Source of the DNA: a phage
DNA: 64,000 nucleotides
Sequence record: PX423614.1
Direction: 5' to 3' (one strand)
A program made the translations under genes and the position numbers. Each line of letters opens with the position of its first letter. Position 1 is the stretch's first letter. Below the pieces are notes generated by a model that worked only from the letters and a program-made list of their open reading frames with translations, was not told the origin of the DNA and searched no databases. Positions 9,174 to 62,483 of the stretch are shown here, in pieces.

Positions 9174-9416
9174 ATGTTGTCTATCGAAGATTTGATCAGC
9201 CGTGGAATGACCGAAGAAAAAGAGCCTCTGATTGTAGGCTCTCGTAAAGCTATCAACCAACTCTGTGAAGAGTTCGGTATCACAAATAAGAGAATGATTG
9301 GTAATCAGTTCTCTGCAATCATCACCTTCCTCAAACGAGGTGATAAATGTTCAATGGAATGTGCTGAGCGTATCATCGCAATTGCACAAGCAGATAAGGG
9401 AGTAACAAGTCTGTGA
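9174..9416 (+). CDS. hypothetical small protein (80 aa)
   Basis: ORF track. Confidence 0.4.
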   Translation: MLSIEDLISRGMTEEKEPLIVGSRKAINQLCEEFGITNKRMIGNQFSAIITFLKRGDKCSMECAERIIAIAQADKGVTSL

Positions 9417-9655: not shown

Positions 9656-10072
9656 ATGGTTAATAATAAACTGGATATGTTTAAAAGTCGTATCTTAGAT
9701 GTAGAGTATTCCAAAAACCTCTTTGAGAAGCACAAGAAAGAGGCAAAGGAAGAGTTAGAAAGTCTTCTGAAAGATGAAGAGATTCCTCTCTTTGATCGTT
9801 GGTGCTTGTTTCTGGAACACGGTGACTTATTTCCTGTAGCTTCAAGTGTAATTAGTAGAGCTGTTACAAGTGCAGTGGAAGGTTTTTATGACTTGGAAAG
9901 ATACCGAACTTATATCTTCTCTGATATTTTTGAAGAATACTGGTTTGGTGAAAAAGAGTCAATTTCTGATGAAACCAAGAAAGCCATTAAGGGATGTTTT
10001 GAAGAATTCCCTGAAAAGCCAATCCGATCAATCATCTTCTCTGGATATTCTGGTTTCCAACATGATTGGTAA
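9656..10072 (+). CDS. hypothetical protein (138 aa)
   Basis: ORF track; RBS-like AGAGG upstream. Confidence 0.5.
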   Translation: MVNNKLDMFKSRILDVEYSKNLFEKHKKEAKEELESLLKDEEIPLFDRWCLFLEHGDLFPVASSVISRAVTSAVEGFYDLERYRTYIFSDIFEEYWFGEKESISDETKKAIKGCFEEFPEKPIRSIIFSGYSGFQHDW

Positions 10073-10078
10073 GCAGCC

Positions 10079-10276
10079 ATGAAAAAGATTCTATTTTTCC
10101 TCTCCTTATTCAGTGTGTCAGCGATCGCCGCTGATGAATGCATCTCTAAAGATTCAGGGAGAGGTCAAATCATAACTCAATGCGGCAGCCATGTAACAGT
10201 TGTCGATTCTATAACTCAAACAGTTCTCGTGTGTAACGGGACTTCTTGTACAAAAGAAATTTTAAACAAAAGGTAA
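10079..10276 (+). CDS. small secreted cysteine-rich protein (65 aa)
   Basis: N-terminal signal-like MKKILFFLSLFSVSAIAA; six Cys in mature part. Confidence 0.45.
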   Translation: MKKILFFLSLFSVSAIAADECISKDSGRGQIITQCGSHVTVVDSITQTVLVCNGTSCTKEILNKR

Positions 10277-10280
10277 TGTA

Positions 10281-10712
10281 ATGTCTGATAAAGTATTAGT
10301 TGCAACGTATGGTTCTCTTCGTAAAGGTCAACACAACCACGCTATCAATGCTCGTGCAGGTGGTGTGTCTATTGGTGAAGGGTGGACAGTAAACAACTGT
10401 AACCTGTATCAGTATTGCACAGCATACTTCCCAAGTGTATCTTTGGAGCATGACAGCAATGGTAAGCCTGTTCGTGTAGAAGTCTTTGAAACAACCCAAG
10501 CTGGTCTGGAAGGTCCGTATGACGGTCTGGAAGGTCATCGTGGTAATGATAACCCATACACCTTTTACAAGCGTACACTGATTCCAGTATTATTGGACAG
10601 CGGTGAAACTGTGGAAGCGTGGATTTATCACATCGACGAAGAACAAGATGTTCTGGTTGAATCTGGTGACTGGACAGCATATCTGGCAGGTGAGAAGGAT
10701 GACAGTAACTGA
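10281..10712 (+). CDS. gamma-glutamyl cyclotransferase-like (AIG2/GGCT fold) protein
   Basis: N-terminal YGSLRKGQHNH matches the YGSL-x-x-G-x-x-NH signature of GGCT/AIG2-like enzymes. Confidence 0.5.
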   Translation: MSDKVLVATYGSLRKGQHNHAINARAGGVSIGEGWTVNNCNLYQYCTAYFPSVSLEHDSNGKPVRVEVFETTQAGLEGPYDGLEGHRGNDNPYTFYKRTLIPVLLDSGETVEAWIYHIDEEQDVLVESGDWTAYLAGEKDDSN

Positions 10713-15700: not shown

Positions 15701-15770
15701 TTGGTAGTAGATATGATAACTCTCAAATGTATATACAGTATAAGAATATTGTATGAAACAGGAGAGAGTT

Positions 15771-20562: not shown

Positions 20563-20609
20563 ACATAATGTATACTCCTTAGTGTACACTGATATGTTAA
20601 GGAGTTGTG

Positions 20610-20924
20610 ATGACCGATAAGGCGAAACGTGATTATGCACAAGAACGAAGAACTGCAATCGCAAGGGGTGAGACCGGCGTTGGTAGCAAGAGCGGAGATG
20701 CTCAGCGCCACCGTGCACGTCGCATCGTTGAAAAGCGCGATGGAAAAGCTGCTGTCCGAGGTAAAGATGTTGGACACAAACGATCAATCAAGTCGGGAGG
20801 TTCTAATGCGTCAAGTAACTTACGTGTTGAATCAGTCTCTCGAAATCGCTCGAACGGCGGCAAAAGTGGAGATCGTGCTGGAAAATCAGCAGGCGGTCGC
20901 AAAGGAGCTTTAAGCTCAAGTTGA
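20610..20924 (+). CDS. small basic Gly/Ser/Arg-rich protein
   Basis: Strong RBS AAGGAG then GTGATG; followed directly by terminator; an alternative-frame ORF 20629..20913 overlaps. Confidence 0.4.
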   Translation: MTDKAKRDYAQERRTAIARGETGVGSKSGDAQRHRARRIVEKRDGKAAVRGKDVGHKRSIKSGGSNASSNLRVESVSRNRSNGGKSGDRAGKSAGGRKGALSSS

Positions 20925-27063: not shown

Positions 27064-27396
27064 AAGTTATTGTTTTAAGTTAAGTTTTCTTTTGATTTTA
27101 ATAGAGAATCAAAGTCCTAGGAGTCCTCAACCTAAATCAAGGATTTCCTTAATTCTCTATTTTTATCTCGCAGGTGTCTCCTGCCCTTCGGTACTTGCAA
27201 GGGTTACAATGATTGCCCAATATACAAGCCTGCAATAGCTTTACTAGCTATACCATATATACATTACTACTTGTCATTATCTACTACCAAAAAGGTTATA
27301 GTATAATAGAACCTTATCTGTATAAGTGTAATGTATATAGTATACAAACCGCTCAAAGAGAGCAACAATCTTAAATCTATATAAGGAAATATTAAT
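27064..27396. promoter_or_regulatory. long AT-rich noncoding region with inverted repeats and promoter-like elements (candidate promoter cluster / origin)
   Basis: 333-bp gap in otherwise tightly packed genome; TAGAGAAT...ATTCTCTA inverted repeat; perfect TATAAT at 27302-27307; two copies of the AATGTATATA-type motif in opposite orientation (27256-27266, 27328-27339). Confidence 0.4.
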
Positions 27397-28137
27397 ATGT
27401 CTATGATCCCTGAACTGTCTGTATCCCGTAAATCCAACTACGATGTAATCCCTGATGGTGAGTACGAAGCACGTATTGTTCGTGTTGTAGGTTTGGGTGT
27501 TCACAATCGTGACCCTTGGATTGACCCTAAAACCAAAGCAGTTACTCCTAAGAACCCAGCTTTCCGTATGGACTTAGCTTTTGAGCTGATTGGCGTAGAT
27601 GCAACAGGGACTGATAATGAAGGCAAACCTCTGGACCCTCGTCCTGCTTGCCAGTTTAAATCTTTTGATGTAAACCCACGAGCTAAGAACTCTGGTATTC
27701 TAAATCTGATTAAAATGATCGACCCAAGTGTTCAAGCACTGAAAGGTGATTTGGGTTGGTTTAAAGATATGCTGTTAGGTCAGCCTGTTAACATTCTGGT
27801 TAACTCTTACACCAATAAAGCTGGTGAGAAGAAAAACTCCATTAAAAGCATCACTCCAATCCCGACTAAATATCGTGACGCGGTAGGTGCTCCTCGTAGT
27901 GAGTTGATCTTCTTCGAACCATATGCTGAGACTGATGCTAACTTAGCTGCTTATCAAGCAATCTTCCCATTCCAACGTAACCTCTTGACTCAAGCTAATG
28001 ATGCTAAGAACATTCCTCTGGCTGGTCGTGAAGTTACCAAAGCTTCTGACACTGAACAGAAGGACGCAACTCCGAGTATCCCTACTATTAATGAAGAGCC
28101 GCAGTCTACCTTTGAAGAGGACGACTCTCCATTCTAA
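27397..28137 (+). CDS. putative single-stranded DNA-binding protein (T7 gp2.5-like)
   Basis: Acidic C-terminal tail ending in Phe (EEPQSTFEEDDSPF), as recalled for gp2.5; sits with replisome genes; fold not verified. Confidence 0.45.
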   Translation: MSMIPELSVSRKSNYDVIPDGEYEARIVRVVGLGVHNRDPWIDPKTKAVTPKNPAFRMDLAFELIGVDATGTDNEGKPLDPRPACQFKSFDVNPRAKNSGILNLIKMIDPSVQALKGDLGWFKDMLLGQPVNILVNSYTNKAGEKKNSIKSITPIPTKYRDAVGAPRSELIFFEPYAETDANLAAYQAIFPFQRNLLTQANDAKNIPLAGREVTKASDTEQKDATPSIPTINEEPQSTFEEDDSPF

Positions 28138-28159: not shown

Positions 28160-28182
28160 AGCCACCTTCGGGTGGCTTTTTT
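28160..28182 (+). terminator. rho-independent terminator with UUCG tetraloop
   Basis: AGCCACC-TTCG-GGTGGCT followed by TTTTTT. Confidence 0.7.
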
Positions 28183-28195
28183 CGTTGGAGTTAAA

Positions 28196-28543
28196 ATGGA
28201 AAACCTTAAACACACTATAGGTTTTATAGTCTTCATAGCTCTTGTTTTCTTTGGAGGTGTTAGGTTCGAGCAACTTCGAAATGACAGTAAAGCTCTTGAC
28301 CAAGAGAAGAAACAACAAGAGATAGAGATTGAGAGAGCTAAGGCTGCTGATGAAGTGGCTCAGAGAGTTCTGACTGGTTTATCAAACTGGAAGAAGAACA
28401 CGGAAACTATTTACAAAGAGATGCATTATGAAAAAACTAAGCCAGTTTTTTACAATGTGTGTGCTAGCGATGAGTATGTCAGCTTGTTCAACGAGCGACA
28501 ACAGCAGGCAGTTAGTGCCCTTACCAACAAACCTAAAAACTGA
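28196..28543 (+). CDS. putative i-spanin (Rz-like; N-terminal TM plus periplasmic coiled coil)
   Basis: RBS GGAG then ATG 28196; TM segment IGFIVFIALVFFGG; coiled-coil QEKKQQEIEIERAKAADE; overlapped by lipoprotein ORF. Confidence 0.45.
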   Translation: MENLKHTIGFIVFIALVFFGGVRFEQLRNDSKALDQEKKQQEIEIERAKAADEVAQRVLTGLSNWKKNTETIYKEMHYEKTKPVFYNVCASDEYVSLFNERQQQAVSALTNKPKN

Positions 28544-28688
28544 GTGTGATGTAGACCTCCCTTTACTTCAGAGTGGACAGGGAGTAGCACTTGCAACAAC
28601 ACTTGAGTGGTATCAGGATAATTATATAACCTGTGCTGCTAATCACAATGGTTTACTTAAAGCTCTCAAAGAGAGAGGGATACAATGA
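28428..28688 (+). CDS. putative o-spanin (Rz1-like lipoprotein) overlapping the i-spanin 3' end
   Basis: Signal sequence ending in lipobox-like MSAC; Pro-containing mature region; out-of-frame overlap with previous gene. Confidence 0.4.
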   Translation: MKKLSQFFTMCVLAMSMSACSTSDNSRQLVPLPTNLKTECDVDLPLLQSGQGVALATTLEWYQDNYITCAANHNGLLKALKERGIQ

Positions 28689-28909
28689 TAAGAGCAGAAC
28701 TTACAATACCAGAAGGCGTTACTCAACTTCATGCAGTATGGGAATACAACAATCAAGTTTGGGGACGAACCTTTAAGTTCTTTGTAGATGGAGATCAATC
28801 CTATTGGGCCTATTATGACTCTGAAGAAGATATGTGGATTAAGGTAAGTGGTATTCAGACAGCCATTCCTTGTCCTGACACAGCAATGTATCTATTCTGT
28901 GTAGCCTAA
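28685..28909 (+). CDS. hypothetical small protein (74 aa)
   Basis: ORF track; ATGA overlap. Confidence 0.4.
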   Translation: MIRAELTIPEGVTQLHAVWEYNNQVWGRTFKFFVDGDQSYWAYYDSEEDMWIKVSGIQTAIPCPDTAMYLFCVA

Positions 28910-28933: not shown

Positions 28934-29584
28934 ATGAAGAAGAAGACAACACCCACACGCTATCGTATTCATGGCATTCCTATTAAATATTATCCAACCT
29001 TCGATGAATTTTATCGAGAGAACTGGAAAGTTGTGCATAAGTATTTTATGTATGACATTAAAGATTATCACGAGGCAGAGGATGTTGCTCAGGAAGTGTT
29101 ACTGAACGCTTGGCGTTTTGTATTTGCAAAGCAAGAAGAACTTCTGCTCACTGATGAAAAAGATATTGAGCACATGACTTATCGTGTCAAGAATATCATC
29201 TGGTCGATTCGTTCTAATCGTCAGACAGTTGGAGACCGACGTATCTACTCTATTCCAGAAGCTGATATGTTTAGACCTCCTGAGATGAATTCATGGGAAA
29301 GTCCTTTAGAGATTGCGATGGATAAGCATGATTCTACTGGAGACCCGTTCTTGGAATCTAGAATCTTTTTCTTCTTCCAAGACCTGAGTGACATTATGGA
29401 AAACCGTAAGATGGCAAGCATGTTCTCAATGCTCTTTCTCGGCATCCCACATGATCACATCCAGCAAGAGTTGGGAATTTCACACGGAACCTTCTATCGT
29501 CGTTATTCAGAGAATCGTGATCTGTATGAAGCGGTAGTAGAGAAGCACTTTGATAAAGAAGATCTTCAAGGGATGATTCAATAA
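28934..29584 (+). CDS. putative ECF-like sigma factor
   Basis: [17 protein letters not shown] resembles sigma-70 region 2; C-terminal [13 protein letters not shown] resembles region 4 HTH. Confidence 0.45.
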
Positions 29585-30180
29585 TGAGTAAACCATTAGT
29601 AGTAATTCTGAATGGACCACCGGGTTGTGGTAAAGATACAATCGCTAATTCTTGGTTAGAGAAAACACTTGGTAACACCGAGTTTAGGCCGCATGTAAAG
29701 GCTTTTAAGGAGCCTATGTATCGAGTGGCTGCTGCTGCATTAGGTCTACCTCTTTATGAGTTCATGGAGCTGTACAACGACCGTGAGTGGAAAGAACATA
29801 GCCGTCCTGAATGGGACGGTAAGTCAGTTCGAGACTTGATGATTGCAACTAGTGAGAACTATCTGAAGCCCATGTTTGGTGAGACCTGCATGGGTAAACT
29901 TGCTGTTAGCAGTATTCAACAACGCACCCCAACACAGAATGATGTTATTGTATTCTCTGACGGTGGGTTTAAAGCAGAAGTTGAAGAACTGGAAAAACAT
30001 TTCCATGTTCGAGTAGTTCAGATTCTCCGAGATGGATGCTCCTTTGAAGGGGACTCCCGTTCTTATATCGAAGGAATAAACCTACCAACCTACCTCCTCT
30101 TTAATGACCGTTCTGTAGAAGAGGCAGTGGAGGATTTGGAGTGGATTATTGAGGGGACACGGAGAGGTCTCTATGTCTGA
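29584..30180 (+). CDS. P-loop nucleotide/nucleoside kinase (dNMP kinase-like)
   Basis: Walker A ILNGPPGCGKDT near N-terminus; size and position like phage dNMP kinases. Confidence 0.6.
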   Translation: MSKPLVVILNGPPGCGKDTIANSWLEKTLGNTEFRPHVKAFKEPMYRVAAAALGLPLYEFMELYNDREWKEHSRPEWDGKSVRDLMIATSENYLKPMFGETCMGKLAVSSIQQRTPTQNDVIVFSDGGFKAEVEELEKHFHVRVVQILRDGCSFEGDSRSYIEGINLPTYLLFNDRSVEEAVEDLEWIIEGTRRGLYV

Positions 30181-31849: not shown

Positions 31850-32029
31850 GAGATTTTATGATTGAAGAAGAAAATTGGGATGTATGACGAATTTGATGGA
31901 TTCTAGTAGCCTTGGGTTTTCTCTTTGTTCTAATAGTTCCTATTAAGAGTAAGGACACACCCCTACTGTACAGTAGATATGGCAAGAGAAGTGATAAAGG
32001 TTTGATATAAAACGTCGAACCTGTATCTA

Positions 32030-32079
32030 GAAATAAAGAAGCCCCCTTCCTTTTTACAGGTTGGGGGCTTTTCTTGTTT
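32030..32079. terminator. bidirectional rho-independent terminator between convergent gene blocks
   Basis: AAGCCCCC...GGGGGCTT stem with inner CCT/AGG pairs, T-rich runs on both sides; immediately 3' of the 1481-aa gene stop (32078-32080). Confidence 0.6.
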
Positions 32080-36523: not shown

Positions 36524-36593
36524 AACGTCTCCTTATAAATAAAAATGTCCTACCTCCTATATACATTATAAGAGATAGGACTTAGGTCTTAGA

Positions 36594-52650: not shown

Positions 52651-53394
52651 TTAACTGTAGTGTTTGATTCCATACAACTCACGAGAGCTGTGAAGACGGT
52701 CAATAGTTCTAGGAATAACTAGAGGAGAGCCTGAGTATTCAGCTTTCTTACTCTGTTCAACTACCTCATCTAGAATAGCTTTCCCTAAAGCAGACCATTT
52801 CTGAACCCCATTATCATCTTGGACAAATAAGCTTGCATGACGTAATGTGAAATATAGAAGAAGCTCTGGAGCTATTGTTAAAATTGCACTTGTATCAGAA
52901 TCCTCATGAAACTCCGGAGGGTCTGCATAATAGCTAAGAATTACCGAATTCTCCGCTGGAATAAGAGGGCTTCCATCATCAGGATAGACCGGAGTGTCAG
53001 CGTTGATAGCTGGGTAGAACAGGAACCGACTTCCCAACCTAGTAAAACTCACTTCTCCCTGATTCCAGTTAGTTGGGTTTACTGAGTTATTTCTTTTCAG
53101 CCAATCTAACTCTTCTGGAGAAGTCACTCGGAACATATGTCCATTGCTTGCTCTCATCATCCATTGAGCTTCTAAATAGTCTGGTGGAATAAAAGCCACA
53201 CCATCTTTAATATCTAAGTATACTTCTTTTTCCAGAGGAGGAATTCGTAAGTTACGATAGATTTCTTTCTCTGCAAAGTTAATAAAGTTTGGAATCTGAT
53301 TAACAAATTCATCATCATCCCTGTCAGCCCAGAGGGACACAGCTTTCTTGAGCCATCCGTAGGTATTGATGGGATATTGGACGTCAGGCATCAT
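52651..53394 (-). CDS. virion structural protein (247 aa)
   Basis: ORF track; between HNH gene and fibre. Confidence 0.5.
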   Translation of the reverse strand: MMPDVQYPINTYGWLKKAVSLWADRDDDEFVNQIPNFINFAEKEIYRNLRIPPLEKEVYLDIKDGVAFIPPDYLEAQWMMRASNGHMFRVTSPEELDWLKRNNSVNPTNWNQGEVSFTRLGSRFLFYPAINADTPVYPDDGSPLIPAENSVILSYYADPPEFHEDSDTSAILTIAPELLLYFTLRHASLFVQDDNGVQKWSALGKAILDEVVEQSKKAEYSGSPLVIPRTIDRLHSSRELYGIKHYS

Positions 53395-53896
53395 AATAAA
53401 CCTCCTTCCAGTTTACGCCTTTAGTAATGAGAGATATTGTGCTTTTAGAGACCCTAAATTTTCTAGCTAAGGCTCTAGCTCCAAACTCTCTATCTCTCGG
53501 TTTGTAGTTCTCCAAACAAAAGAGAACTTGCTCTTTAGTGAGTTTGGAATTAGGGTTATCCTCAAGATTCCTTGGTGTTGAGAGTTTTGTTTCATAAGCA
53601 TGTACACAGTTTTCTTGTTGAGTACACCACTCTAAATTCTCAATCCTGTTGTCATCTTTTATTCCATTCTTATGGTTGATATACTCCTTCCCTTCTACTT
53701 TAGGAAGAAAGAGTTCAGCTATGACTCTATGCTCTAGGTAAGATTTCTTCTTGAAGGTTAACACACGATACCCCTTACTGTTAATACATCCAGCACGTTG
53801 ACCTTTCTGTTTATTGAATATGTTACTCATAGACCAGAAAAGATACCCTGTATTTGGGTCATATGTAAAAGCTCCTCTGAAATCTGGCATTGCCAT
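53384..53896 (-). CDS. HNH homing endonuclease, free-standing in the late operon
   Basis: YINHKNGIKDDNRIENLEWCTQQEN HNH motif. Confidence 0.65.
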   Translation of the reverse strand: MAMPDFRGAFTYDPNTGYLFWSMSNIFNKQKGQRAGCINSKGYRVLTFKKKSYLEHRVIAELFLPKVEGKEYINHKNGIKDDNRIENLEWCTQQENCVHAYETKLSTPRNLEDNPNSKLTKEQVLFCLENYKPRDREFGARALARKFRVSKSTISLITKGVNWKEVYYDA

Positions 53897-53959
53897 AACT
53901 TGTCCTCCTAGTTGTGTATAGACAAAGAGAATACATTACATATCTCCTTATAAGGGTCT

Positions 53960-53996: not shown

Positions 53997-55628
53997 TTAA
54001 GCACCAGATTTAACGGTGTAGGTTTTGAACACTGTAGAACCTGGGTCAGTTCTCAGGGTTACTTTAGTATCTTCACTAGTGATAGCACCAGAGAGCGTAA
54101 TTGTTAAAGCATCACCAGAAATGGTAATACTCAATTTGTCTGCATCTGTGCCTTCTACATCATATACGATAGTTCCTAGTGGAGCACCTTGAGGAACAGA
54201 AGCTATGTTAAAAACTCCTGGTTGGCTTGGGTCTGAGATTGTCAAAGTATCACCAGCTACTGACCCATCAGACACTGCTGAAACAACTAAACCAGTAAGT
54301 TTAGGTATTACGTCTTCTATGGTAGAAGTTGCAGTTACTGAAGTCTGGGTTTTATGAGTAGCCTTAACAGTTACATTGTCATTCGCTGTATCTGACAAGG
54401 TTAACAAGCCAGAGGTAGCATTAACAGAACCGGCAGCAGTTGGAGTTACTACGAAATTATAGTTAGTAGCTGCGGAGTTAGTAACAGTAAACATTTCAGC
54501 AAACGTTACTGTACCTCCTGCGGATTTACCACCTACTATCTTGCCTGTAATTGTAGCTTTTGGCGATACACCTGTCAAATTGAACGTAGCAGTGACAGTT
54601 GTTTTAATTTTATGAGTAGCTTTGATACTCACATCACCAGTAGCTGTATCAGCCAGAGTTAACAACCCAGAAGCATTAACGGAACCAGCAGCTGTCGGAG
54701 TAACAACGAAGTTGTAGTCAGATGCCGCAGAGTTGGTTACTGTAAACATGTCAGCAAACGCAACCGTATCACCGCCTATCTTACCAGCAACAGCAGCTTT
54801 AGCTACGACAGTTGGAAGAGGAGTTACACCATTAATACTAGCAGTTGCAGTAATAGAAGTTACCGTCTTGTGAGTAGCTTTAACAGTTACGTTACCACTA
54901 GCTGTACCAGCTAAAGTGAGCTGACCAGCAGCATTCACTGTACCGGCAGCAGTAGGGGTTACTACAAAATTATAGTCACTAGCAGCTGAGCGTTGAACAG
55001 TAAACATATCTGTAAAAGCGACACTGTCTCCACCAGATTTTCCAGTAATAGCAGCTTTAGCCGCGATAGTTGGAGGCTGAGGGTTGACAACAACGTTAAT
55101 CACTTTAGTGACAGAAGGTTTAGTAGAAGATTTAACTGTAAGAGTAGTACTACCTGCTGCAACAGCAGTTACACGACCAGCAGTTGTTACCGTAGCCTTA
55201 GTCGGATCTGCAATTTCCCAAGTAACACCTTGAGGTGCACCAGCAGGAGATACAGAAGCAGTCAGATTGGTAGCATCTGGAACAGTTATGGTAAGAGTAT
55301 CACCAGTTAGACCACCACCAGTTACAGCAATGGAAGCTGGGTCAGGGATTGGAGCTTTAATTTCCGAGATAACGGCAGTACCTGATACATCTTTAAGAGT
55401 AGCAGTCACTGTAATATCAGCGGTTTGAGGCGAACCCGGAGCAGTGAACAGTCCAGAAACAGAAATGGCCCCACCACCGGCTACTGACCAATCGAAGCCT
55501 GTAGTAGATGTGGAGCCATCGCTTAGTTCTGCTTCAGCTGTAAACTGTTGGGTAGCCCCGGTCAGCAGACTAGCCACTGACGCGGGACTAACAGTTACGC
55601 TGTCAACTGTTACGCCTCCACCTTTCCC
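53997..55628 (-). CDS. Ig-like (Big_2-type) repeat extension, predicted to be expressed as a -1 frameshift fusion to the major capsid protein
   Basis: ~540 codons open in the -1 frame relative to the capsid gene, no plausible own start/RBS; tandem repeats of VTPTAAGSVNA...VKATHKT; slippery G GGA AAG at capsid codons 346-348. Confidence 0.55.
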   Translation of the reverse strand, partial: GKGGGVTVDSVTVSPASVASLLTGATQQFTAEAELSDGSTSTTGFDWSVAGGGAISVSGLFTAPGSPQTADITVTATLKDVSGTAVISEIKAPIPDPASIAVTGGGLTGDTLTITVPDATNLTASVSPAGAPQGVTWEIADPTKATVTTAGRVTAVAAGSTTLTVKSSTKPSVTKVINVVVNPQPPTIAAKAAITGKSGGDSVAFTDMFTVQRSAASDYNFVVTPTAAGTVNAAGQLTLAGTASGNVTVKATHKTVTSITATASINGVTPLPTVVAKAAVAGKIGGDTVAFADMFTVTNSAASDYNFVVTPTAAGSVNASGLLTLADTATGDVSIKATHKIKTTVTATFNLTGVSPKATITGKIVGGKSAGGTVTFAEMFTVTNSAATNYNFVVTPTAAGSVNATSGLLTLSDTANDNVTVKATHKTQTSVTATSTIEDVIPKLTGLVVSAVSDGSVAGDTLTISDPSQPGVFNIASVPQGAPLGTIVYDVEGTDADKLSITISGDALTITLSGAITSEDTKVTLRTDPGSTVFKTYTVKSGA

Positions 55629-56665
55629 GCAGCGGTGAACAATACACCAGAAGCATATGGGTTGCGGTGACGCAGACCAACTTCCATTTCGATCATCCAT
55701 TTCTCGTAAGAACCATCTTTCGCCAGTTCAGTACGTTTCGGAGCACGAAGAACCATCTGAGTCCAGTCAGAGCTGCGGAAGAAGTAAACTGCATCAGCAG
55801 GCATCCAACGGTTAACGATGATTTTATAGCTCTGACCCAGCGGGTCAGTGATGCTGTTAACTTCATAGATGAACTGTTTGGTGTTCTCAAAGATACGCTG
55901 ACGAGAACCAACAGAGTTTTCCTGAAGCTTAGCAAAGATGCTAGCGTGAGCAGGGTTAATCATGATGATGTCTGCTTCAGAACCGGCGGTATACAGTTGC
56001 AGAGTCATATCAAAGATATCAGCTTCATCAAAACCGATGTTCGTAGTCGGGTTAGAAGCATTCTGTGCAACTTTAACAGTTACTGCACCAGTATCTGGGT
56101 CAGCAGGACCATCTTCTTTCTTAACAACACCACCAGCAACACCGTTGTGTGCACACAGGAACTGGAAAGCACCAGTCTTACGAGCAGCTGAGGTGTCATT
56201 CTGACCTACAACAGCAGGATCAGTTGCAGAGTTGGTCAGATACTGGTCTGCCAGAATATCGGTACGAGCCTGACCGGACAGCAAGATTTTCTCGAGGTCA
56301 CGTTTAATCTCTTTACCTTTCTTCTCCAGCTGATACATCAGTTCACGACCACGACCGTAGTTAGCGGTGGTGTTAGCAGTATCAGAAACACGAACAACTT
56401 TACGCAGGATCTGAGTAACGTTGGACTTGATTACAGTCGGTTTCATTTCGCCGTCTTCAGCACGAGAGCCTTCGACGTGGGCGTTGTTAGCATCTACGCT
56501 CGCCAGAGCATCGGTCTGCCAGCTGAAAATAGTCTGATTGATAGACTCTTTACCAGTCATAGACACAAACGGAGTGTCTTGCGGAGACAGGACAGAAATC
56601 CAGTTAGCAAAAGAAAGTTTTTTACCATTCTGGTCGTAAGATACAAATAAAGTTGGATTTGCCAT
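55610..56665 (-). CDS. major capsid protein (351 aa)
   Basis: Directly downstream of acidic scaffold gene; strong RBS; product assigned by operon position, not by recognised motif. Confidence 0.55.
   Translation of the reverse strand: MANPTLFVSYDQNGKKLSFANWISVLSPQDTPFVSMTGKESINQTIFSWQTDALASVDANNAHVEGSRAEDGEMKPTVIKSNVTQILRKVVRVSDTANTTANYGRGRELMYQLEKKGKEIKRDLEKILLSGQARTDILADQYLTNSATDPAVVGQNDTSAARKTGAFQFLCAHNGVAGGVVKKEDGPADPDTGAVTVKVAQNASNPTTNIGFDEADIFDMTLQLYTAGSEADIIMINPAHASIFAKLQENSVGSRQRIFENTKQFIYEVNSITDPLGQSYKIIVNRWMPADAVYFFRSSDWTQMVLRAPKRTELAKDGSYEKWMIEMEVGLRHRNPYASGVLFTAAGKVEA
55622..55628 (-). other. -1 programmed ribosomal frameshift slippery heptamer G GGA AAG
   Basis: On - strand mRNA, GCG GGA AAG GTG GAG GCG TAA in capsid frame; slipping to GGG AAA G enters the Ig-like ORF (…GKGGGVTVDS…). 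Confidence 0.5.
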
Positions 56666-62418: not shown

Positions 62419-62483
62419 CTTATACTCCTTCTACATTATCGTTATAACAAAAAGCCTCCCACGAGAGGAGGCAACACCTTTTA

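Follow-up and report, generated by a model that had tools for sequence, protein, structure and literature searches.

The closest described system is that of phage phiEco32, whose gp36 associates with E. coli core RNAP into a holoenzyme that transcribes the middle and late promoters of the phage (PMC12276001; PMC8948821). Gp36 and a second phage protein, gp79, co-purify with the host RNAP out of infected cells, and a cryo-EM open complex of E. coli RNAP with gp36, gp79 and promoter P68 was published in 2025 (PDB 9M7Y; PMC12276001). In this complex the N-terminal domain of gp36 (residues 1-103) lies on the clamp helices like sigma2, via D44, E47, E49, D50 and E54, while recognition and melting of the -10 element fall to E79, H80, Y83, R84, W90, S91, S94 and N95 (PMC12276001). 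The linker threads the active-centre cleft along the sigma3.2 path, and the C-terminal domain (138-214) is bound to the flap-tip helix, with Y186 and R187 (phiEco32 numbering) as its contacts to the -35 region (PMC12276001). Gp79 binds the clamp, displaces region 4 of sigma70 or sigmaS and clamps the C-terminal domain of gp36, stimulating gp36 transcription 4-fold at P26 and 3-fold at P68 (PMC12276001). Six gp36-dependent phiEco32 promoters were mapped, belonging to late genes 6, 13 and 26 and to middle genes 40, 58 and 68, and all six share the element tAATGTAtA, 6-8 bp 5' of the start site (PMC8948821).

Two further phages use related strategies. The related prolate podovirus 7-11 of Salmonella encodes a phage sigma factor, gp47, at a syntenic position, which also forms a holoenzyme with the host core RNAP and transcribes late genes (PMC8948821). 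However, gp47 is only about 15% identical to gp36 and recognizes the bipartite promoter GTAAtg-N16-aCTA, and phage 7-11 has neither gp79 nor host shut-off nor a middle gene class (PMC8948821). In T4 a small protein, AsiA, likewise disables region 4 of the host sigma factor, while a second phage protein, MotA, provides new promoter specificity; this functional analogy at the early-to-middle switch comes from the paper on the gp36/gp79 structure (PMC12276001). While T4 keeps and remodels sigma70, the gp36 system displaces and replaces it.

The window studied here, a stretch of 64,000 nucleotides, comes from a Suseptimavirus coliphage (SU7-like, Gordonclarkvirinae) and covers about 64 of the about 76 kb of its genome. 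In a megablast search the 3 kb around the ORF at 28934-29584 (+) matched 89 phage records, with Phage NC-B as the best match (95.7% identity), followed by Bas87, IME267 and SU7; SU7 and ECBP2 are classified in the genus Suseptimavirus of the Gordonclarkvirinae. The ORF runs from ATG to stop (216 aa plus stop), with a Shine-Dalgarno-like AAGGA about 8 nt 5' of the ATG. We conclude with high confidence, from sequence comparison with the characterized protein, that it encodes the Suseptimavirus ortholog of phiEco32 gp36, a predicted two-domain phage sigma factor that would replace the host sigma factor.

This conclusion is based on several lines of evidence, which uphold the proposal of the earlier note that a phage sigma factor is encoded here. 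In the PHROGs search PHROG 1740 ('RNA polymerase sigma factor') matches the protein over its full length (residues 1-215, E=1e-43), and a pairwise alignment to phi32_36 of phiEco32 gives 80% identity over 215 aa. Among solved structures the only significant match is chain 9m7y_F (E=1e-117). By tblastn the gene is found in 99 phage records, among them 93 named Escherichia phages and 3 Shigella phages; this distribution and the full-length match to PHROG 1740 exclude a chance reading frame. Identical proteins (100%) are encoded by four GenBank phages, HC-25922, 101114UKE3, IME267 and Bas87, and the copies of the Suseptimavirus phages IME267, Bas87, HC-25922, 101114UKE3, SU7 and ECBP2 are 98-100% identical to the window protein. 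A search of 5.8 billion proteins recovered a small family of 20 clusters that are 45-97% identical and, one fragment excepted, about 215 aa long, one member of which carries a precomputed Sigma70_r2 (PF04542) match.

The finding itself is already known in the sense that protein, partner, promoters and RNAP structure have been published for the phiEco32 ortholog. Phi32_36 (ABY52837.1) is annotated as 'RNA polymerase ECF sigma factor', and the Bas86-88 records and the ECBP2 RefSeq record carry the label 'RNA polymerase sigma factor', while SU7_29 and several other Suseptimavirus copies are still called hypothetical protein. The authors of the SU7 genome paper did not find the expected sigma factor and reported no phage RNA polymerase. 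These labels reflect a gap in annotation and no biological difference; the practical value of the present assignment lies in the annotation of Suseptimavirus records, including the type phage SU7. In agreement with the SU7 paper, none of the ten largest ORFs of the window has an RNAP Pfam domain, so that the statement of the earlier note that no phage RNA polymerase is present holds.

Window and phiEco32 protein share length class, gene neighbourhood, the gp79 partner and promoter elements at the same genome positions, although phiEco32 is a Kuravirus and the Suseptimavirus protein differs by a 2-residue insertion in the linker, which shifts the numbering by 2 after residue 118, and by Leu in place of M138. 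By alignment to gp36, residues 1-103 (28934..29242, +) form the N-terminal sigma2-like domain with the predicted clamp-binding helix and -10-recognition residues. The linker comprises residues 104-139 (29243..29350, +), and residues 140-216 (29351..29581, +) form the C-terminal sigma4-like domain with a helix-turn-helix, in which Y188 and R189 correspond to the -35 contacts and which also carries the grooves for the beta flap-tip helix and for the N-terminal helix of gp79. The segment that had been singled out as region-2-like is an acidic helix (residues 48-61; 29075-29116, +), whose counterpart binds the RNAP clamp helices in the ortholog; it falls inside the only stretch that sigma-70 models align (residues 22-63), which bears out the original assignment.

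In the pairwise alignment all published contact residues of gp36, whether for the clamp, the -10 or -35 elements or gp79, are identical in the window protein, except M138, which is replaced by Leu and sits in the flap-tip groove. D44, E47, E49, D50, E54, E79, H80, Y83, R84, W90, S91, S94, N95, Y188 and R189 are all present, and most published functional residues are invariant in the alignment of 19 family members. We infer from the ortholog that the window protein binds core RNAP and resembles gp36 in promoter use and timing.

Generic sigma models are less informative. Pfam Sigma70_r2 aligns to residues 26-61 with 19.1 bits, below its gathering cut-off of 24 (E=0.0011), while the Pfam scan gave no match of Sigma70_r4 or Sigma70_r4_2 to the protein. 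A check with region 2 and region 4 models, as suggested by the earlier note, thus yields a sub-threshold signal for region 2 and none for region 4. Among the NCBIfam models, TIGR02937 (sigma70-ECF) reaches 20.6 bits against a cut-off of 42.9, although residues 23-191 are aligned, and many ECF models align to residues 22-63, every one far under its cut-off. When relatives were scanned individually, Sigma70_r2 was detected at E<=0.01 in 14 of 19 (best 1.9e-5), and Sigma70_r4_2 in only one of the 19 (E=0.0036). Pfam and NCBIfam alone would therefore leave the question open; it was PHROGs, the PDB and the phage collection that decided the identity of the protein.

Compared with the PDB, the family profile gives weak matches that include the ECF sigma factors SigW, SigK, SigL, SigE and RpoE, all of them on residues 7-65 and nearly all within 21-65. 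An AlphaFold2 model built on the family alignment (mean pLDDT 74.8) consists of two helical domains joined by a linker of low confidence, with pLDDT below 50 at residues 99-115. Helices 173-180 and 184-205 of this model form a C-terminal helix-turn-helix, consistent with the HTH-like segment noticed earlier. With the predicted model as query, Foldseek ranked 9m7y_F first among PDB entries (2.2e-18), and ranks 2-21 are mostly ECF sigma factors, the matches to which take in both domains.

In principle, an ordinary HTH regulator, TetR-like or similar, could act as repressor or activator without replacing the sigma factor, and the sub-threshold generic sigma models together with weak hits that link the C-terminal HTH to TetR_N (E=0.064) and to TetR-family PDB chains (E=0.02-1.3) could be taken in its favour. 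However, the protein is 80% identical over its full length to one that occupies the sigma position on RNAP by cryo-EM, its N-terminal matches are solely to ECF sigma region 2, and its fold resembles mainly ECF sigma factors, with both domains included. We consider a regulator of this type extremely improbable. The TetR-like candidate was rejected, since its matches are weak, confined to the HTH and contradicted by the full-length match to 9M7Y.

The protein is thus a phage sigma factor distantly related to sigma-70 and ECF sigma factors. Its predicted fold, in which sigma2 and sigma4 are joined by a linker and neither sigma1.1 nor sigma3 domains are present, corresponds to the ECF architecture, and the term 'ECF-like' from the earlier note appears fair for the fold, though the thresholds of the curated ECF and sigma-70 HMMs are not reached. 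The closest bacterial systems are ECF (group 4) sigma factors such as SigE, SigL and SigK of M. tuberculosis, SigW of B. subtilis and sigmaE of E. coli. The window protein differs from these in scoring under every curated HMM cut-off and in a region 4 that is barely detectable by sequence; for gp36 a rotated first helix and a shorter helix 4 of the recognition domain were described in comparison to ECF factors (PMC12276001). No gene for a cognate anti-sigma factor, which is usual next to ECF sigma genes but not universal, is present among the neighbours of the sigma gene. The predicted promoters of the phage sigma factor are centred on AATGTA and its control would be exerted by a co-activator, without an adjacent anti-sigma gene, unlike the situation for ECF factors. 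Bacterial ECF promoters are of the AAC/CGT type.

The sigma gene lies within a long plus-strand cluster, extending from 270 to about 31849, which converges at about 31850-32078 with the minus-strand structural cluster (63453 down to 32078) encoding portal, tail proteins and terminase. Its neighbours are spanin genes, a 74-aa ORF of no assigned function, a dNMP kinase gene and an exonuclease gene. The order gp40, gp39, gp38, sigma factor, dNMP kinase, exonuclease, small ORF and HNH is conserved, even in relatives whose sigma factor is only 47-64% identical. The gene had been placed at the end of the early block; this is imprecise, as five more recognized plus-strand genes follow over about 2.3 kb before the clusters converge. 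By homology it is moreover a middle gene and not an early one (PMC8948821).

Several of these neighbours show features of their own. The gp40 homolog (27397-28137, +; phrog_6599) ends in an acidic EEDDSPF tail that resembles those of bacterial SSB proteins, and it is labelled ssDNA-binding protein in one phage record. The middle cluster also contains, just 5' of the sigma gene (28172-28688, +), an Rz-like spanin gene that is overlapped by an ORF annotated as O-spanin in SU7. Both lie about 19 kb from the late-cluster gene for the lysis protein, a homolog of phiEco32 gene 17. The window encodes no homolog of phiEco32 gene 37 (macro / Appr-1-p domain) or gene 35 (GTP-binding), and the 74-aa ORF (phrog_30479; 28685-28909, +) stands in place of gene 37. 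The alignment of the 198-aa dNMP kinase (29584-30180, +) to phiEco32 gp34 is limited to residues 102-294 of the latter.

The partner of the sigma factor is encoded far upstream. An 80-aa ORF at 9174..9416 (+) is 75% identical to phiEco32 gp79 (tblastn, E=5e-39) and, by this homology, is predicted to be an inhibitor of the host sigma70 and sigmaS holoenzymes and a co-activator of the phage sigma factor. It keeps the contact residues R26, L32, M43, F48, I51, R68, I70, L9 and M14, and carries the conservative changes L6I, V10I, L29I and W36F. The earlier picture of a sigma factor that redirects host RNAP has to be corrected in that the phage factor would work with gp79 as co-factor.

The promoter elements of phiEco32 can be recognized at the corresponding positions. 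The 9-mer TAATGTATA occurs in four exact copies in the window, compared to 0.46 expected, and none of 100 shuffles reached four; all four copies are intergenic and three of them are at positions orthologous to published promoters. In total, gp36-type elements are found at the positions of P6, P13, P26, P40, P58 and P68, corresponding to three middle (+) and three late (-) promoters. If one mismatch is allowed, the 9-mer is not enriched over the window (19 matches vs 17.7 expected), and the three one-mismatch sites therefore rest on their position and on identity to the phiEco32 promoters.

Among the predicted middle promoters, the P68 equivalent (15702..15733, +) has the structure TGGTAGTAGATA-N11-AAATGTATA, with AAATGTATA at 15725, and the gp68 homolog downstream is 92% identical to phiEco32. 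The putative P58 equivalent, TAATGTATA at 20566..20574 (+), is located 5' of the gp58 homolog (20607-20924), which is 90% identical. The putative P40 equivalent, TAATGTATA at 27329..27337 (+), precedes the gp40 homolog by 60 nt and the sigma gene, which is encoded on the same strand, by 1.6 kb. On the minus strand, the predicted late P26 equivalent (36560..36568) is an exact TAATGTATA 5' of the 1481-aa gp26 homolog. The candidate element at the P13 position (53930..53938, -) reads TAATGTATT, with one mismatch at the last base, and an extra 170-aa ORF (53384-53896) lies between it and the gp13 homolog. The predicted P6 equivalent (62430..62438, -), TAATGTAGA, is identical to phiEco32 P6, is immediately preceded by a terminator hairpin and stands 5' of the gp6 homolog. 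The convergent late operon had been suggested as the target of the sigma factor, which agrees with the P26, P13 and P6 equivalents; the middle promoters on the plus strand would be driven as well.

Following the model established for phiEco32, host RNAP with sigma70 would transcribe the plus-strand cluster first, and the phage sigma factor would initially be made from such transcripts. The gp79 homolog would then bind the clamp and push region 4 of sigma70 or sigmaS out of the RNA exit channel, a displacement expected to shut off host and early transcription. With its acidic helix (D44, E47, E49, D50, E54) the sigma2-like domain of the phage factor would dock on the beta' clamp helices, and it would read and melt the -10-like AATGTA via E79, H80, Y83, R84, W90, S91, S94 and N95, while the linker would pass through the active-site cleft like sigma3.2. 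The sigma4-like domain is predicted to bind the beta flap-tip helix and to contact the -35 region by Y188 and R189, and the N-terminal helix of gp79 would hold this domain, stimulating promoters 3- to 4-fold. Having taken the core enzyme, the phage sigma factor would fire the three middle (+) and the three convergent late (-) promoters.

Since the sigma gene is located 3' of the P40 equivalent, the phage factor probably reinforces its own expression; self-sustained sigma synthesis was also proposed in the published literature. We did not find a strong sigma70 promoter directly 5' of the sigma gene, where the best site matches 9/12 positions (28789-28816); such a promoter directly 5' of the gene was proposed for SU10. 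A GC-rich terminator-like hairpin with a T-run (28160..28177, +) follows the gp40 homolog and precedes the genes that lead up to the sigma gene. It may attenuate P40-driven transcription and thereby damp the loop, and because of its position between P40 and the sigma gene the self-reinforcement is uncertain.

A functional sigma factor could still differ from gp36 in promoter specificity or in its dependence on gp79. The two proteins differ in 20% of residues, including the 2-residue insertion in the linker and the M138 to Leu change in the flap-tip groove, the gp79 homolog is changed at L6I, V10I, L29I and W36F, and specificity drifts within the family, as 55% identical members have H80N and R84Q and their corresponding intergenic regions contain no TAATGTATA. 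However, all DNA-contact residues are identical to those of gp36 and the promoter elements are as in phiEco32, including the P68-type -35 block TGGTAGTAGATA and the 11-nt spacing; moreover, ECBP2, another phage of the genus Suseptimavirus, already has the same six elements as predictions in the published 2022 promoter table. A change in specificity or gp79 dependence therefore appears very unlikely to us, and we favour a window sigma factor that acts at gp36-type promoters together with gp79.

The divergent case is illustrated by a Logan contig (L012, from SRR32369621) with a 55% identical sigma factor at 10001-10648, in which TAATGTATA is absent 5' of the gp40-like and gp26-like genes. The L012 protein has H80N and R84Q at -10-contact positions. 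Judging from these sequences, the promoters of L012 probably differ from the TAATGTATA type, which hints that sigma residues and promoter sequence may co-vary within the family.

The fourth exact copy of TAATGTATA is part of a leftward gp36-type promoter-like site (27258-27289, -) in the spacer (27064-27396) that separates the phosphoesterase gene from the gp40 homolog. This site reads TGGTAGTAGATA-N11-TAATGTATA, with TAATGTATA at 27258-27266 and TGGTAGTAGATA at 27278-27289, separated by an 11-nt gap, and it is arranged back-to-back with the P40 equivalent at a distance of 62 bp. Block and spacing of the -35 region are the same as in phiEco32 P68, the promoter of the cryo-EM complex, and the -10 element is better than that of the structurally validated P68. 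The window has just two copies of the 32-nt bipartite pattern, the P68 equivalent and the leftward site, and four phiEco32-like IMG/VR contigs also carry two per genome. A comparison of ten phages from three genera shows no variation in the -10 block and the same -35 block in nine phages, with one substitution in ES17, while the sequence between the blocks varies. The later phiEco32 papers and the 2022 table, with which the site was compared, name only six promoters, none of them leftward.

The sequence downstream of the site is also conserved. The 160 nt 3' of it (27096-27257, -) are 91% identical to phiEco32, a value above those of gene 40 (81%) and the sigma gene (76%), and runs of 30, 18 and 18 nt in the spacer are invariant in 10 of 10 phages. 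Predicted folding of the spacer RNA gives z=-3.3 for the minus strand vs -2.3 for the plus strand. In the first hairpin after the predicted leftward start, pairing is kept through two-sided changes (UA/GC; CG/UA/AU), in ten spacer sequences that are closely related and in which most pairs never vary; the same hairpin also keeps G-U pairs, which are mismatches on the opposite strand. Rfam and tRNA searches of the conserved spacer gave no match, and no plausible minus-strand ORF was found downstream of the leftward promoter.

On the plus strand, the same spacer contains a long compound hairpin (27101-27164), ATAGAGAAT...ATTCTCTAT followed by TTTTT, just 3' of the phosphoesterase gene. The hairpin, whose paired part spans 27101-27160 (+), is nearly invariant in ten phages, and the terminator consensus scan missed it owing to the long loop. 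This hairpin likely closes the upstream operon as a terminator ahead of P40.

We tentatively propose, as a possibility that we regard as rather less probable than its alternative, that a seventh promoter of the phage sigma factor transcribes a non-coding RNA about 150-190 nt long (27096-27251, -), conserved and structured, that would be complementary to the terminator region of the upstream operon. Literature searches for antisense RNA in phiEco32 and for transcriptomics of Kuravirus or Gordonclarkvirinae revealed nothing relevant. The leftward promoter and the conserved spacer are a lead rather than a result. A leftward RNA could possibly regulate early read-through, in an antisense or insulating role, or it might provide the primer or R-loop RNA of a replication origin beside the SSB-like gene, by analogy to the middle-promoter origins of T4. 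If true, the leftward transcript would add one non-coding RNA to a well-studied phage transcription programme.

Two further observations concern the late cluster. An Ig-like-domain protein encoded after the major head gene (53997-55700, -) is about 3 times as long as phiEco32 gp12 (170 aa), which aligns twice to it. At the boundary of the gp25 and gp26 homologs, a 15-bp terminator-like hairpin with ATTTTTATTT behind it (36581-36547, -) carries the P26-equivalent element in its apex. Five of its stem pairs differ from those of phiEco32, and all five retain Watson-Crick or wobble pairing. This arrangement suggests a combined terminator-promoter at 36547-36581 (-) between both genes.
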